In this document: in pieces, positions 32,114 through 64,000 of the stretch
Numbering within the stretch: position 1 is the first letter of the stretch
Layout: each line of letters begins with the position of its first letter
DNA from: a bacterium
GTDB lineage: Bacteria > Patescibacteriota > Dojkabacteria > B142 > OLB20
Assembly (NCBI GenBank): GCA_021463645.1
Contig: JAJTYI010000006.1
Span: forward strand, 181,692 to 245,691
Direction: 5' to 3'
DNA: 64,000 bases
Notes under the pieces: model-generated
What the model was told of the DNA's origin: nothing
What the model saw: only the letters and a program-made list of their open reading frames with translations
Database searches by the model: none
Translations under genes and position numbers: made by a program

Positions 32114-33331
32114 TTAGTTCTTACTGACCTTTCTGACTTGCCACCAAGTTAATGGGAATTGTAACAAGAGATATATCGCAATTATTGGTGTTATCCCTAT
32201 CCCGACAAAGGTGTAAATCAGCCCTGCAATTGTTGGTGCAAAAGCTGAACTAATAGAAAATATTGACTCATCGATTCCGTTTATTAAACCTTGTTTCCTT
32301 TTCTCAACTGCTGAAGTAATTATCGATTTGAAAGTAGGAATACTTAGCGAAATCCCTAAGTTGGTTAAGTAAGAACAGGCGAAGAAAATTAGCAACGAAT
32401 CTGCAAAGTACAAAAGAACTAATCCTGAAAACAACAGGATTTGACCAATTATGTATGTCTTTTGTTCTCCAAATTTATCCGCAAATCTTCGTGAAAATAA
32501 TCCCTGATTGATTACTAAGAAGCTTCCAATAACTAAAAAAATAAGTCCAACTTGCTTTACATCCAAATCATAACGATTTTGTACATAAAGAGTTAACAAA
32601 GAAGTATATGCACTAAAGCTAAGTGTGAAAAATACCCTTCGTGCAAATAGATGTGTGAGGTCCATATCATTAAGTGATTTAATCTTGGCAAAGATATTTA
32701 ATTCTTTAGTTAATTTAATTTCTAGTTCTTTATCCTGCTCATCATGTGATTCAGGTACTTTGAAAATAATTAAAAGCAATGTCACTAGTGAGATACAAAA
32801 AGCAACAATCGCTGTTCCAAGGTATCCAATACTGAATGAGCTTGCATAGCCTCCTAGAACAGGTCCCACCACAAAGGCTAATCCAAAGATTGCCCCCGAT
32901 AGCCCATAAATTTTTGTTCGTTCTTTTGCTTCCGTCTTGTCAGCGATATAGGCATTTGCGACAGAGACATTACCTCCAGTTATTCCATCAATCACTCTTC
33001 CAAAAATAATCACGAGAATTGGAAGTGAAATTCCAACTACGGGAATATCTGGGATGAAATAGGAAATTCCAAATATTATCCAACTGACCATTGTTCCTGC
33101 CTGGCTCAAAATCAAAATGGGGCGTCGACCGTACTTATCACTTAAGCTTCCTAAAATTGGAGCGCCAATAAACTGAAAAAATGCATATGCTGAAACCAAA
33201 AATCCATACATTAGTGGAGTTTCGTTGTATTGCTTGATTACAAACGGTAGAATAGGCAATACCACAGAGAAACCTAGTGCATTTACAAATGTAAGCAATA
33301 ATATTGGATAGATTTCTTTTTTAATTTTCAT
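32114..33331 (-). CDS. MFS transporter (drug:H+ antiporter-like)
   Basis: 12 TM, with the MFS loop motif GSLSDKYGRRP. Confidence 0.85.
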   Translation of the reverse strand: MKIKKEIYPILLLTFVNALGFSVVLPILPFVIKQYNETPLMYGFLVSAYAFFQFIGAPILGSLSDKYGRRPILILSQAGTMVSWIIFGISYFIPDIPVVGISLPILVIIFGRVIDGITGGNVSVANAYIADKTEAKERTKIYGLSGAIFGLAFVVGPVLGGYASSFSIGYLGTAIVAFCISLVTLLLIIFKVPESHDEQDKELEIKLTKELNIFAKIKSLNDMDLTHLFARRVFFTLSFSAYTSLLTLYVQNRYDLDVKQVGLIFLVIGSFLVINQGLFSRRFADKFGEQKTYIIGQILLFSGLVLLYFADSLLIFFACSYLTNLGISLSIPTFKSIITSAVEKRKQGLINGIDESIFSISSAFAPTIAGLIYTFVGIGITPIIAIYLLLQFPLTWWQVRKVSKN

Positions 33332-33453
33332 TATTTATTATTTCCATCGACGATTATAACCTTAATTGGTGTAGTTTGATAATAAGGATATAATAAATCC
33401 ATTGTTGTATAATTATCCCTCTCTCATTTTGTGAGGAGAGATTATGGTCACAC

Positions 33454-33713
33454 GGAAGGGTGTCCAGCCTTCGTCAAGACTACGGCTGGTAAACTGAGAT
33501 TGTCCCTCCCTTCGATGAAGGGTGGGGTGAAGCCGAAAGAGTTCAAATAATGGAAGGGTCGCATCCCTCTACCCCCTGATAAAGTTAGGGGTTCGAGGGA
33601 CAAGTAGACTCAAGATAATAAGTAAAACCATTTTGGAAGGGTGTCCAGCCTTCGTCAAGACTACGGCTGGTAAACTGAGTTTGTCCCTCCCTTCGATGAA
33701 GGGAGGGATGAAG
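33454..33713 (+). repeat. Two copies of a 79-nt GC-rich hairpin unit (33454-33532 and 33635-33713), plus a 13-nt copy of the tRNA 5' end at 33552-33564
   Basis: The units differ by 3 substitutions. Each holds CCAGCC-N14-GGCTGG and CCCTCCCTTC-GAT-GAAGGG(A/T)GGG hairpins, and each starts with GGAAGGG, which equals the tRNA-Ser acceptor 5' strand. Confidence 0.85.
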
Positions 33714-33762
33714 TCGCCACCGCGAAGCGGGGTCCCGCTTTGCGGGAAAAGAGCATAAAATT

Positions 33763-33849
33763 GGAAGGGTCGCATAGTGGTCTAGTGCCCCGCTCTCGAA
33801 AAGCGGTATCGGGGAAACCTGATCGTGGGTTCAAATCCCACCCCTTCCG
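33763..33849 (+). tRNA. tRNA-Ser (anticodon CGA)
   Basis: Acceptor GGAAGGG / CCCTTCC. Anticodon stem CCGCT/AGCGG with loop CTCGAAA. Long variable arm (TATCGGGGAAACCTGATC). T arm GTGGG-TTCAAAT-CCCAC. Discriminator G. CCA is not encoded. Confidence 0.9.
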
Positions 33850-34090
33850 AGACTGTTGATGAATCGAACTAAGCGATGATGAAGCATACAGTCGTTGGGA
33901 ACGGCCTTGCGCTGTTTCGCCACGATTAGATTCCGCAGAGCAAAACAAAACGTGGGCGGGAACAACCTGGCGCTGTTCCGTTCTACTTCGCTGAAGCTTC
34001 GTAGAGCATAGCTATTCTCTATAAGTACAAGTTATATAATCCCCCTAGAAGTAATTTGAAAAATAAGATAAAGTTATCGAGAGGTGCTAT

Positions 34091-34408
34091 GTGAATAATT
34101 ATTTGCTTTTTGATTTTACCAATATGAGTGTCATCAATCATTTCAAACCTAACAAAACCAGGATTAAAATTTTCTTAATAGTTTTTTTACTGTTTATTTT
34201 TCTCAATATCCTAATAATTTATAGATTTGGTCCTTTCTGGGATAGGCCTTTATCTATCGGTTATCCGGTAGATATTTATAAGTTGGGTTGTGGGATGTCT
34301 CCATTGTTAACAGGTGCGGTATGTCTAACTGGTTTCAGTGCTCTAGGCTTACTAATCAACGTGATTTTTTGGTATCTAGTCTCTACATTTATTAAGAGAA
34401 GCAAATAA
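34091..34408 (+). CDS. Hypothetical small membrane protein
   Basis: 105-aa ORF with GTG start and 2-3 TM. Confidence 0.5.
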   Translation: MNNYLLFDFTNMSVINHFKPNKTRIKIFLIVFLLFIFLNILIIYRFGPFWDRPLSIGYPVDIYKLGCGMSPLLTGAVCLTGFSALGLLINVIFWYLVSTFIKRSK

Positions 34409-35172: not shown

Positions 35173-36318
35173 TTGAATAAACTCAAGACAATCTTTAAAT
35201 CCATTCATATACCATATCTATCAAGTATTATACTTAACCTCATTATTAGTTATTCTTTATATATTGTTATCTCGGTATCGTCATCTGCTGGAACAAGTCC
35301 ATTTCCTCGAGCAGTCGAATCCCAATATCTCCCTATTTACGGGTTGATTCTCTCATTTATTAATCCGATGTATATAGTTACTTACATTTACATGATTAAG
35401 AATCATAAGAATTTAGAGAATAGTGCATTTTATGGATTAAATATTGTTCAGATTAGTATTTATTTCTCAACATTAATTACGATTTCAATTCAGTTGCTTA
35501 TTTATCTTGAAACATATTGGAATCAATATTTTCCTATTAATATGTTGACTAATCTGACAACTCTGGCAACCATTAACTTGGATTTGGCTTTGAGATCCTC
35601 TGCCTATGTCAATTCATTAATGAATATTCAAGATGGCCCTATTATTATGTCTTCTTTGGGACTCGCTCTAATCACAATTTTTGCACCCATTTTCTTTATT
35701 TTCTATGGTTTGGTATTTTACCTTAGACATAGGAAATATAAAGTTCAATCTGAATCGCAGCAAAGGTTATTCAAGATAATTTCTATCCTTGTTTCGTTAA
35801 ATTTGATTATTATATTCGGAATTATTCTGTTTAATAGCATTAATAAAAACGGACAGTTCCATAAGGCCATTGACAAAGGGGATGTTTCTGCTTGTGAGAA
35901 ATTATTCAATCAAGACTTGAGAGAGAAATGTGTTAGCGAGTATGTATTGGATAAACCATACTTCCATGAATGCAATTCCATATCGGACACTATGAGTTTG
36001 TATGATTATTGTATAGAGGAGGTATCAAAGATAAGTAATGATTGGAAAGGGTGTTATGAATTAAACGAGAATCAAAGAGTGAAAGAATGTATTAATGATA
36101 TTGCTATAAGAAATAACTATTTTCTCGATACTGAAGTCTGTGATGCGATGGCTCCAGACGAAGATGACATATATTTTAGGATGGGAGAAACAATAGCTTG
36201 TTATGCCAAGATTGCTTATATTAAGAAAGATCATTCATTATGCAATGAGCTGAAGGGGTACGATGCTAGGGCATGTTATGATGAATACTTGTCATTATGG
36301 GAGGATGATAATCTTTAG
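35173..36318 (+). CDS. Polytopic membrane protein with a C-terminal Cys-rich repeat domain (paralog A)
   Basis: TTG start. N-terminal multi-TM region, then 10 Cys arranged as five C...C pairs (ACEKL..KCVSEY, ECNSIS..YCIEEV, GCYELN..ECINDI, VCDAMA..ACYAKIA, LCNELK..ACYDEY). Confidence 0.7.
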   Translation: MNKLKTIFKSIHIPYLSSIILNLIISYSLYIVISVSSSAGTSPFPRAVESQYLPIYGLILSFINPMYIVTYIYMIKNHKNLENSAFYGLNIVQISIYFSTLITISIQLLIYLETYWNQYFPINMLTNLTTLATINLDLALRSSAYVNSLMNIQDGPIIMSSLGLALITIFAPIFFIFYGLVFYLRHRKYKVQSESQQRLFKIISILVSLNLIIIFGIILFNSINKNGQFHKAIDKGDVSACEKLFNQDLREKCVSEYVLDKPYFHECNSISDTMSLYDYCIEEVSKISNDWKGCYELNENQRVKECINDIAIRNNYFLDTEVCDAMAPDEDDIYFRMGETIACYAKIAYIKKDHSLCNELKGYDARACYDEYLSLWEDDNL

Positions 36319-36405: not shown

Positions 36406-37548
36406 GTGAACAGACTAAAAAGAATCCTCTCATCAATCAAAACCCCATATATTTTAAGTGTTCTCCCAAATTTATTAATAACTATCTTTTTCTGGTTTAT
36501 GGTTAGTTTCTTCGGAGATACTGCCACTACAACTATTTCTGACTTCTTGTTATTACCCTTATTCCTACTGGGAGGTACAATTCTCACAATTATAAATCCA
36601 ATGTACTTAGTAACATATTTATATATGAGAAGAAATCACAAAAGATTTGATAATAGTGTGTACTATGGATTTAATATAGTTTTACTGAGTTTGTTTTTTT
36701 CTGCCCTTATTACTGTATTTGTTGAGTTAATTCAGGTCACTAAATTATTCCTCGACTATACAATAATTGAGAATTTCCTTAATAATCCCACTAGTTGGTT
36801 TCTTCTGGGAACGGATCTGACTGTTAGGAATATGCTCTACACCAATTTTATGCGAGATATGTTTTCCGGAATAGCTGATTCTGAATGGCTCCTCGGTCTT
36901 ATGGCACTAACATATTTATTACCACTGTTCTTTATACTTTACGGATTTGTATATATTGTAAGACATTTCAAATTTCGAGTCTTTAATCAAGGGCAAAAGA
37001 GATTATCAATTGCATTGGTAATTCTACTTTCTTTGACTTCCGTTTTATTAATAATGACTCCTATAATACATTCAAAATATTTAGATGGCATGGTTTCAAA
37101 GGCTATAAATATGAACGATATAAAGTTTTGTAGAGATATGAATGATTATGAGATGACCAGAGAATGCATAGTAAAATATTCTTCAGAGAATAAAAGTTTT
37201 GTAGCATGTAATGCATTGTCTGATAATTACATTGAAATGAGGGCTTGTATTGATGAGGTTTCAATACACTCCAAGGACTGGAGGGAATGTTATTCATTAA
37301 AAAAAGATGTACAAATGTGTATATACGATGTTGCTCGCAGAAATGATTACTTCTTGGATTTAGAAATTTGTAATGTATTAACATTAGATGAAGAGAACCC
37401 AAATTCGGGGGGATATTATTCAGCGATGTGTTATGCGAAAATCGGATATGAAACGAAAGACTTCGGATTATGTAGTAGATTACAAACAGAAGTAGATTAC
37501 GAAACTTGCATTCAAGAGTTGGATTCGTTGAGACAATATGATTACTAA
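36406..37548 (+). CDS. Polytopic membrane protein with a C-terminal Cys-rich repeat domain (paralog B)
   Basis: GTG start and colinear with paralog A (MNRLKRILSSIKTPY vs MNKLKTIFKSIHIPY). All 10 Cys positions are conserved. Confidence 0.7.
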   Translation: MNRLKRILSSIKTPYILSVLPNLLITIFFWFMVSFFGDTATTTISDFLLLPLFLLGGTILTIINPMYLVTYLYMRRNHKRFDNSVYYGFNIVLLSLFFSALITVFVELIQVTKLFLDYTIIENFLNNPTSWFLLGTDLTVRNMLYTNFMRDMFSGIADSEWLLGLMALTYLLPLFFILYGFVYIVRHFKFRVFNQGQKRLSIALVILLSLTSVLLIMTPIIHSKYLDGMVSKAINMNDIKFCRDMNDYEMTRECIVKYSSENKSFVACNALSDNYIEMRACIDEVSIHSKDWRECYSLKKDVQMCIYDVARRNDYFLDLEICNVLTLDEENPNSGGYYSAMCYAKIGYETKDFGLCSRLQTEVDYETCIQELDSLRQYDY

Positions 37549-63274: not shown

Positions 63275-63463
63275 TACAGAGGATCTATCACAAACTAGAT
63301 TATGACTGTTGATTAAGCTTTTATCCAGTACTAGAGTGCTCTATTTAATCCTCCCCAAATCCCCATCAATCACAACGGGCTGGAAGGTGATTAATTCATC
63401 CTTGTAATGCATATCGGGTAAACGATTGTAGGGAAAGATCCTTAAGTGCTTCGGAGAGTGCGA

Positions 63464-63735
63464 CCCCGGATTAAATCCGGGGGAACTCACGATCCCACTC
63501 GTCCAATTAGTTTACCCACTATAATTTCAATGATGGTGGACCAACTAGTAAAAATACTAAACGGAGAGGACAGCCCCGGATCTAGTCCGGGGGAACTCGC
63601 GATCCCTTTTGAGACACTTCGTTAGCAGTCCTGCCTGTCGACAGGCAGGGAAGCGTACCGCTTAGCGGTATGAACTTTCGACTTCACCCCGCCTTGGCGG
63701 GGCAAGCTCAGCCAACTATTAAAAATACTAAACGG
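63464..63735. repeat. Interleaved direct repeats and GC-rich perfect hairpins in non-coding DNA
   Basis: 33-nt repeat CCCCGGAT(TAA/CTAGT)...CCGGGGGAACTC(A/G)CGATCCC at 63464-63496 and 63574-63606. 24-nt repeat CCAACTA(G/T)TAAAAATACTAAACGG at 63541-63564 and 63712-63735. Perfect palindromes at 63630-63649, 63656-63670 and 63687-63702. Confidence 0.85.
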
Positions 63736-63788
63736 TACCTTTTGGTTGAAATTCTAACTTTTTTTGAACAAAATCCAGAATAATGAGG

Positions 63789-63946
63789 TGCGTTTCCGCT
63801 TGCCTCCGCTCCGCTACGGCAAACCAAAACAGAAATTTTTTCATTACATTTTTTATTTTTTTCTGCCCCCCCCATTTTTTTCTTTTAATAGGAGATGAAA
63901 AATTTTCTGTTTTTGGTTTTCTCTTAATCAGAGAAAAGCGGAAACG
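63789..63946. repeat. Long imperfect inverted repeat around a T-rich/C8 core
   Basis: Outer arms GCGTTTCCGCTT (63789-63800) / AAGCGGAAACGC (63935-63946). Inner arms AAACCAAAACAGAAATTTTTTCAT (63820-63843) / ATGAAAAATTTTCTGTTTTTGGTTT (63894-63918). The centre contains CTGCCCCCCCCA flanked by T runs. Confidence 0.8.
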
Positions 63947-64000
63947 CTCTATTCTTAATCGCAAAAGGGCAAAAATTCCTTCCCCTCAACCCCCTTCCTT

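Follow-up and report, generated by a model that had tools for sequence, protein, structure and literature searches.

Integrases that target tRNA genes nearly always use the 3′ part of the tRNA. In Escherichia coli, the tyrT operon (rtT RNA) carries tandem repeats next to a tRNA gene, which duplicate a terminal part of the tRNA and share its transcript. SegB of phages T4/T6 is a GIY-YIG enzyme encoded among tRNA genes, which drives tandem tRNA-segB amplification via microhomology at the tRNA 5′ end (PMC2330249, PMC13096335), and group I introns have been described in tRNAs of Patescibacteria (PMC13011429). Here we analyse a 64,000-nucleotide (nt) stretch of a Dojkabacteria genome (OLB20; contig JAJTYI010000006.1, positions 181,692 to 245,691 of the forward strand), called the window in its whole length, in which a G+C-rich, hairpin-dense array lies directly upstream of a tRNA-Ser(CGA) gene and repeats the start of this tRNA. 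As judged by comparison with related loci, the array probably consists of debris of GIY-YIG cassettes that have lost their open reading frame (ORF), enlarged by a 181-bp tandem duplication and likely carried as a long pre-tRNA leader.

At the level of sequence comparison, we show an association of GIY-YIG ORFs with tRNA-Ser genes, the repeats bracketing these cassettes, their hairpin ends, a polymorphism at the locus itself and ORF-less stacks elsewhere.

A repeat array upstream of tRNA-Ser(CGA)

The tRNA-Ser(CGA) gene is located at 33763-33849 on the + strand (33762/3-33849/50 by ARAGORN and Rfam; 54.8 bits), in agreement with the original prediction, an annotation made from the sequence alone. 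The gene stands in a G+C island of 618 nt (33415-34032; 51% G+C compared to 35.6% for the window), by far the largest in the window. This island had been noticed in the original prediction for its upstream part. It runs about 160 nt past the tRNA, and its downstream half (33850-34010), not covered at that time, carries a further, diverged hairpin repeat and is the same phenomenon as the upstream array. The features of the region are as follows.

33454..33551, + strand: unit A1, composed of GGAAGGGTGT, HP1+TAAA, CTGAGATTG, HP2 and TGAAGCCGAAAGAGTTCAAATAAT (HP, hairpin)
33454-33463, + strand: A1 part GGAAGGGTGT, of which the first 8 nt equal the tRNA start
33464-33493, + strand: A1 part HP1 with TAAA
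33464..33489, + strand: HP1 copy 1, CCAGCC TTC GTC AA GAC TAC GGCTGG, a member of the TTC-hairpin motif
33494-33502, + strand: A1 part CTGAGATTG
33503..33527, + strand: A1 part HP2 (copy 1; stem-loop 33504-33526), with one T-T mismatch, framed by CTGAGnTTG and TGAAGyCGAAAG
33528-33551, + strand: A1 part TGAAGCCGAAAGAGTTCAAATAAT, a GNRA-type mini-hairpin plus AT-rich leader
33552..33634, + strand: unit B′, a truncated tRNA 5′ copy GGAAGGGTCGCAT (33552-33564), HP3, ACAAGTAG and an AT-rich spacer
33565-33599, + strand: HP3, a nested hairpin interrupting the tRNA 5′ copy of B′
33635..33762, + strand: unit A2, the parts of A1 plus HP4 inside the leader hairpin, then the AT-rich leader to the tRNA
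33645-33670, + strand: HP1 copy 2 (CCAGCC-N14-GGCTGG)
33685-33707, + strand: HP2 copy 2, CCCTCCCTTC-GAT-GAAGGGAGGG (unit part 33684-33708)
33720-33731 and 33734-33745, + strand: arms of HP4, a double mini-hairpin of about 30 nt with 12 bp, 17 nt before the tRNA
33763..33849, + strand: intact tRNA-Ser(CGA) (ARAGORN, Rfam), CCA not encoded
33850..33919, + strand: 70-nt trailer segment, with copy 1 of the diverged hairpin repeat at 33882-33919
33920..33939, + strand: inverted partial copy of the tRNA variable-arm/T-stem region, 75% complementary to 33809-33828
33943..33980, + strand: copy 2 of the downstream hairpin repeat, terminating in CTGTTCCG, which appears to resemble the tRNA 3′ end (CCTTCCG)
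33980..34007, + strand: solo TTC-hairpin, GTTCTAC TTC GCT GA AGC TTC GTAGAGC

A repeat search of the window returned the A unit as 82 nt in two copies (33454-33535 and 33635-33716) with 95% identity and a start-to-start spacing of 181 nt; the 79-nt unit with 3 substitutions originally described is contained therein. A 36-nt probe from the unit has two exact matches in the window compared to none in 100 shuffles. The re-use of the tRNA acceptor 5′ sequence could also be confirmed: GGAAGGGT occurs four times in the 64 kb, at 33454, 33552, 33635 and 33763, all on a single strand and within 310 nt. This count is by itself unremarkable, since 4 of 100 shuffles reach it, and the clustering is the rare feature. 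The first 13 nt of the tRNA do recur at 33552-33564 as predicted, and they do so together with the AT-rich leader, the pair being repeated at 33546-33564 and 33757-33775. Only two ORFs cover the array, both antisense and implausible, in keeping with the earlier statement that no credible ORF exists there.

All hairpins were found where the original prediction had placed them, including the T-T mismatch of HP2 in copy 1 and the 12-bp hairpin 17 nt upstream of the tRNA, and GAAGGG can indeed pair with CCCTTC, giving mutually exclusive folds. HP1, in both copies, and the hairpin at 33980-34007 are the window members of a common motif, hereafter the TTC-hairpin, composed of an outer stem, TTC, an inner stem-loop, T(T/A)C and the other strand of the outer stem. 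HP2 lies in a frame, CTGAGnTTG-[hairpin]-TGAAGyCGAAAG, which exists in four copies with three different hairpins; the third of these hairpins, CCCCGCC-AA-GGCGGGG, lies on the minus strand of the window at 63675-63711. Copy 2 (z = -5.2) and the island as a whole (z = -5.1) fold more strongly than shuffles, as opposed to copy 1 (z = -0.9). No sigma-70 promoter or intrinsic terminator accounting for the hairpins was found, none of them preceding a T-run.

The Rfam search proposed with the original prediction was run with Rfam 15 over 33300-34100 up to E = 10. Only the tRNA (RF00005) was matched, other hits having E >= 0.03, far below gathering. Three assignments were considered and rejected. A hammerhead or other small ribozyme formed by CTGAG..hairpin..GAAAG misfits in its core and has no Rfam match at E = 10. 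Matches to C/D-box small RNAs at the locus are noise, with E above 1. Finally, the A unit as a canonical tRNA-Ser 5′ half carrying a D-loop hairpin is unsupported beyond nt 9: the unit aligns best to tRNA-Ser, yet 35-71 of 200 shuffles score equally.

Variation of the locus within the species

Conspecific loci were collected by exact-protein look-ups of two flanking genes, which gave dozens of independent assemblies. At least 10 independent SRA assemblies that share the neighbouring genes in identical form are interrupted precisely within the two copies, those that are k-mer-based ending in copy 1 (at 33483 or 33498) or beginning in copy 2 (at 33650). These break points fit a true 45-nt exact repeat, showing that the repeat is not an assembly artefact.

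The tRNA-proximal unit A2 has at least four alleles in the species: that of the window, that of locus L164, one shared by L019, L155 and L156, and that of L161. Four loci (L019, L020, L155 and L156, the last from NCBI GCA_035445885.1) are 99.5-99.7% identical to the window downstream of the tRNA and carry a short allele. The 30-nt HP1+TAAA is cleanly missing from their tRNA-proximal unit, HP2 is swapped for CCCCGCC-TT-GGCGGGG within the same frame CTGAGnTTG...TGAAGyCGAAAG, and the 12-bp hairpin HP4 is absent. Since the alleles differ by whole hairpins while their flanks are >99% identical, whole hairpin modules turn over within the species.

The same four loci have, to the left of A1, an alpha-2-macroglobulin-like gene of 1769 amino acids (aa) where the window has a gene of the MFS family. 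The breakpoint between the two arrangements falls exactly at the first GGAAGGG (window 33454 compared to L019:1788 and L155:3066). The position of this breakpoint indicates that the tRNA-start repeat also marks a larger rearrangement or an island boundary.

A different polymorphism is observed on the other side of the tRNA. Locus L157 is 100% identical to the window over 33650-33849 (A2 and the tRNA) and 99.1% identical from 33920 onward. Directly after the last base of the tRNA it carries a 438-nt insert in place of window 33850-33919, composed in order of:

element 1: a TTC-hairpin, TTCTACTTCGCTGAAGCTTCGTAGAAC, identical over 30 nt to window 33976-34005
element 2: a second, similar hairpin
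element 3: an AT-rich stretch
element 4: an 87-aa GIY-YIG ORF (PF01541)
element 5: AGTTCTCGCCCCTTCC, like the tRNA-Ser 3′ end with a foreign T-stem

A cassette is thus present or absent at one and the same site in close relatives. In L157, the inverted tRNA piece corresponding to window 33920-33939 is complementary to the tRNA at 14 of 15 positions.

GIY-YIG cassettes at tRNA-Ser genes of Patescibacteria

To obtain related loci, metagenomes were scanned with the first 26 nt of the tRNA, which returned more than 120 contigs with a composition like that of the candidate phyla radiation (CPR). Unique tRNA-Ser loci were analysed for upstream tRNA starts (about 110 loci) and for GIY-YIG density (about 116 loci). 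An extra tRNA start is present upstream in about 20 of the 110, most loci being devoid of one, and fuzzy matches to the tRNA start are distributed as 25 upstream, 5 downstream and 3 on the reverse strand.

A GIY-YIG ORF lies at most 600 nt from the tRNA in about 15% of the related tRNA-Ser loci. The 20 such places are all on the strand of the tRNA (20/20), and the density amounts to 0.155 per kb up to this distance compared to 0.008 per kb elsewhere on the same contigs, a 19-fold enrichment. The association was also observed in a reverse test from the protein side, in which six GIY-YIG homologues were looked up in their own contigs: the four with 55-59% identity and enough flanking sequence all sit 90-180 nt downstream of a tRNA-Ser (4/4).

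Two types of cassette could be distinguished, with a size of 0.3-0.45 kb and an ORF of 80-87 aa comprising the GIY-YIG domain only. In the upstream type (nine unique loci), a truncated tRNA-Ser 5′ part is interrupted by one or two G+C-rich hairpins, mostly between D-loop nt 14 and 15 and sometimes additionally at 31/32 or 35/36. An ORF of about 80 aa follows this tRNA fragment and stops 1-32 nt short of the intact tRNA. In the downstream type, the ORF lies just past the tRNA with hairpins in front of it. A TTC-hairpin (consensus TCTAC-TTCGC...GCTTC-GTAGA) stands directly 3′ of the tRNA, and the ORF ends in CTACGAAGCCTTGGCGAAGTAG, which is the TTC-hairpin in inverse orientation; the two cassette ends therefore resemble inverted repeats (CTACTTCGC). 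After downstream-type cassettes, the last 8-15 nt of the tRNA recur (15 nt in L165, 12 in L169, 14 in L171, about 13 in L173 and 8 in L157). TTC-hairpins at tRNA-Ser 3′ ends or GIY-YIG cassette ends were found in eight loci (L046, L047, L075, L101, L142, L157, L165 and L171). Their internal loop TTC...T(T/A)C is conserved; the outer and inner stems vary in sequence and stay complementary.

The nearest solved structure of the GIY-YIG proteins is UPF0213 BH0048 (1ZG2; E = 5e-4). No NCBIfam model, equivalogs included, matches them, and the upstream-type protein has a weak PHROG ‘homing endonuclease’ match. The fusion of a DNA-binding domain to the nuclease domain, as in I-TevI and the Seg proteins, is not seen in these proteins. 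Apart from tRNAs, no group I intron or other Rfam family was detected in the cassette-bearing loci.

Stacks of hairpin-interrupted tRNA-Ser 5′ fragments also occur without any ORF, in L039, L050, L068, L079/L091 and L145. L050 in particular carries GGAAGGGTCGCAT, a CCC..GGG hairpin and ACAAGTAG running into the D-loop, which matches window 33552-33607 in layout. Only the window species and L050 were found to contain the 10-mer GGACAAGTAG, each time in a tRNA-fragment/hairpin context, and HP1-like inserts of a hairpin plus TAAA are also present in L039, L050 and L080.

Some further observations concern this family of loci. In the metagenome contigs L075 and L082, one tRNA-Ser(CGA) is flanked by GIY-YIG ORFs of both the upstream and the downstream type. 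L174 (NCBI GCA_947489505.1; 1501-2431) carries three tandem 81-aa GIY-YIG ORFs (a 43% identical relative). A tRNA-Arg(TCG) gene overlaps the end of the last of these ORFs by 10 nt, and upstream of the first ORF lies a partial copy of the tRNA-Arg start, interrupted by a CCTGCCTGCCGGCAGGCAGG hairpin. This tRNA-Arg case shows that the architecture is not limited to tRNA-Ser. Finally, 91 distinct tRNA-Ser sequences (L035-L154, a set selected by this 26-mer) have an identical 5′ 26-mer, GGAAGGGTCGCATAGTGGTCTAGTGC, together with five anticodons (GGA 63, TGA 17, CGA 8, GCT 2, ACT 1) and 26 different T-arms. In a set picked by the 26-mer, this sharing is no more than suggestive; it would fit a horizontal replacement of tRNA 5′ halves.

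Origin of the array

We propose that small GIY-YIG cassettes home to tRNA-Ser genes in Patescibacteria, where they are seen to adjoin the tRNA on its own strand. As a cassette is bracketed by a direct repeat of the tRNA 5′ or 3′ end, the tRNA stays intact and the old copy of the end is displaced outward. The nuclease would cut cassette-free alleles, and repair would copy the cassette along with its tRNA-end copy. Recombination between hairpins or repeats may later remove the ORF, leaving stacked tRNA-end fragments and hairpins. In the window, the presumed remains upstream would comprise both A units together with a 13-nt tRNA start interrupted by a hairpin, their extent having been increased by a tandem duplication of 181 bp that spans [A + leader + tRNA nt 1-13]. 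The remains downstream would be the hairpin repeats, the inverted tRNA piece and the solo cassette-end hairpin. The upstream array today would probably be no more than a long leader of the pre-tRNA, which RNase P would cleave off at 33763.

Several points weigh against this explanation. No trace of the ORF exists in the window (tblastn found no GIY-YIG ORF or remnant), so that analogy and the cassette downstream of the tRNA in L157 are the only ties of the upstream array to the cassettes. Among the more than 120 related tRNA-Ser loci, no homologue of the A unit could be detected beyond the species, and the alignment of the unit to the tRNA indicates that the resemblance past nt 9 is not significant. 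The proposed history gives no account of how short G+C-rich hairpins enter the loops of tRNA fragments. The predicted nucleases, as judged by their domain content, comprise the catalytic domain only and are devoid of the DNA-binding domain of proven homing endonucleases; their cleavage and mobility are putative. Lastly, a frame kept in four copies around three hairpins could mean selection on structure.

A variant of this history, conceivable if rather doubtful, is that the units are non-autonomous members of an undescribed class of hairpin-ended cassettes, mobilised in trans by GIY-YIG-only nucleases, homing to tRNA-Ser and overwriting tRNA 5′ or 3′ ends. If so, it would explain how 91 tRNA-Ser sequences with five anticodons come to have one identical 5′ 26-mer, and the hairpin-interrupted tRNA fragments could serve as recognition or guide elements for a nuclease devoid of a DNA-binding domain.

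The array could instead be a functional structured leader, or give rise to co-transcribed small RNAs or tRNA-start decoys, with GGAAGGG competing for the tRNA 3′ acceptor strand or RNase P freeing the units. The folding of the island and of copy 2 beyond shuffles, the mutually exclusive pairings of GAAGGG with CCCTTC, the hairpins of differing sequence that fill the same frame in four copies and the location of hairpin insertions mostly at loop positions of tRNA fragments would all suit such an RNA. Copy 1, nevertheless, folds no better than shuffles, no Rfam family matches, fragments devoid of the 3′ half cannot make an RNase P substrate, and a leader of this kind is absent from most related tRNA-Ser genes. 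The comparison of tRNA-Ser loci that had been suggested as a check gave no homologue of the A unit outside the species, and near-identical strains (>99%) gain and lose whole hairpins, unlike what is expected of a constrained RNA. We keep a functional leader RNA as an unlikely explanation, because selection on structure could account for a frame that is conserved while its hairpin varies. Of the three candidates raised in the original prediction, the structured noncoding RNA or decoy and the regulatory leader thus gained no support. The sequence evidence supports the remaining one, scars of repeated recombination at the tRNA, by displaced tRNA-end copies and cassette-type hairpins, and we specify these scars as probable GIY-YIG cassette debris.

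Two other origins invoke no cassette. Plain local tandem duplication or slippage in a repeat-prone, G+C-rich intergenic region, the cassette of the other strain being coincidental, would be in line with the 181 nt between the starts of A1 and A2 and with the leader and 13 nt repeated in parallel, which look like one event, as well as with the downstream hairpin repeat, tandem as well. It seems improbable to us, as it leaves unexplained that the units start at tRNA position +1, that cassette-end hairpins lie within them, that the fragment-plus-hairpin layout recurs in unrelated lineages (L050, L039, L079) and that GIY-YIG ORFs are enriched 19-fold beside tRNA-Ser. The units could also be att-site scars of larger islands or prophages integrated via a recombinase of the tyrosine or serine type, a directly repeated tRNA segment being a classic signature of integration. 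Such repeats are present here (GGAAGGGT in four copies, the leader with 13 nt in two), and the two strain arrangements differ wholly left of A1 with a break exactly at GGAAGGG. However, the repeats come from the tRNA 5′ end, and the units are far too small and hairpin-rich for att sites. No integrase or recombinase domain was found in the flanking ORFs scanned (the MFS gene encodes a transporter, three other neighbours are without a match in Pfam, and that of L019 resembles alpha-2-macroglobulin). The leader with the tRNA start matches no viral contig, and BLAST against phages found nothing with the island or with the GIY-YIG protein. We regard this origin as very unlikely. The cassette debris described above is the explanation that we retain as probable.

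Distribution of the A unit and other features of the window

Within the 64 kb, the A unit is confined to the tRNA-Ser locus, with one related module at 63675-63711. A degenerate A-unit pattern gave 8 chance matches in G+C-rich genomes when run against the GTDB representatives, among which the source genome is not included. Viral contigs scanned for the hairpin module gave 9 chance matches, all within coding sequence.

The related module belongs to another G+C island dense in hairpins, at window 63404-63740 as read on the minus strand. The island carries the module CTGAGCTTG-CCCCGCCAAGGCGGGG-TGAAGTCGAAAG (63711-63675), common to the tRNA-Ser locus, and two copies of GGGATCG(C/T)GAGTTC-[CCCCGGA..TCCGGGG]-..CTCTCCG, with the spacer TTTAGTATTTTTAnTAGTTGG before or after each. 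It looks like degenerate tRNA-like pieces with inserted hairpins, and neither ARAGORN nor Rfam detects a tRNA or RNA family in 63404-63740. An imperfect AT-rich palindrome of about 170 nt (gcgtttccgc...gcggaaacgc) follows at the window end (63783-63958), to which Rfam gives just weak, spurious miRNA-type matches.

Elsewhere in the window, genes for IF-2, a Mur ligase and a protein of the LytR family identify the host as a bacterium, setting aside a thermophilic archaeon with C/D-box small RNAs or split tRNAs. The MFS gene left of the array matches transporter families. Two adjacent paralogous ORFs (35173-36318 and 36406-37548; 381 and 380 aa, no family assignment) have similar N-terminal membrane regions and Cys-rich C-terminal parts. 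From their sequences, the pair looks like a tandem gene duplication.

Comparison with known systems

The relic in the window is by itself ordinary, changes little and is of modest interest. The cassettes are homing-type nuclease cassettes at tRNA genes, a known kind. We found no published description of the GIY-YIG/tRNA-Ser cassette architecture in a literature of incomplete coverage, and the family is provisionally considered undescribed. Its interest lies in a recurrent architecture of tiny GIY-YIG-only ORFs, duplicated tRNA ends, covarying hairpin ends and leftover stacks of hairpin-interrupted tRNA fragments. If mobile, the cassettes would constitute a minimal homing system in otherwise extremely reduced genomes, and a route for horizontal exchange of tRNA gene ends leading to mosaic tRNAs. 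They would also offer a testable function for the widespread, uncharacterised stand-alone GIY-YIG proteins UPF0213/COG2827. In practical terms, tRNA-Ser loci are points at which the genome assemblies of such organisms break.

The cassettes are like SegB in that a GIY-YIG gene lies beside tRNA genes and is present or absent between close relatives, and the SegB repeat junction at tRNA 5′-end microhomology parallels the window units that start at tRNA +1. Whereas SegB is a phage protein and has a DNA-binding region, those of the cassettes are catalytic-domain-only (80-87 aa), UPF0213-like, chromosomal and tRNA-Ser-specific. The cassettes further differ in being bracketed by tRNA-end direct repeats and hairpin ends, and the window has no ORF.

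As in tRNA-targeting integrative elements (attL/attR), the incoming copy keeps the tRNA intact, a displaced partial copy marks the other boundary and repeated events stack copies. Here, however, there is no integrase, the size is 0.3-0.45 kb, both 5′- and 3′-end duplications occur and hairpins lie within the displaced copies. The tyrT/rtT repeats likewise stand beside a tRNA gene and re-use a terminal piece of the tRNA, but they are located downstream, re-use the 3′ end and have neither a nuclease association nor hairpin modules, whereas the window array is upstream and re-uses the 5′ end; rtT RNA (RF00391), which is in the Rfam library searched, has no match at the locus. Lastly, repetitive extragenic palindromes and the mosaic elements composed of them (REP/BIME), as well as miniature inverted-repeat transposable elements (MITE), are short G+C-rich hairpin modules cleanly present or absent between strains, as are the 30-nt HP1+TAAA and the HP4 of about 30 nt. 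Unlike in those families, the hairpins here differ from one another, a single further related module exists in the 64 kb, and no REP-associated tyrosine transposase (RAYT) or other transposase accompanies them.

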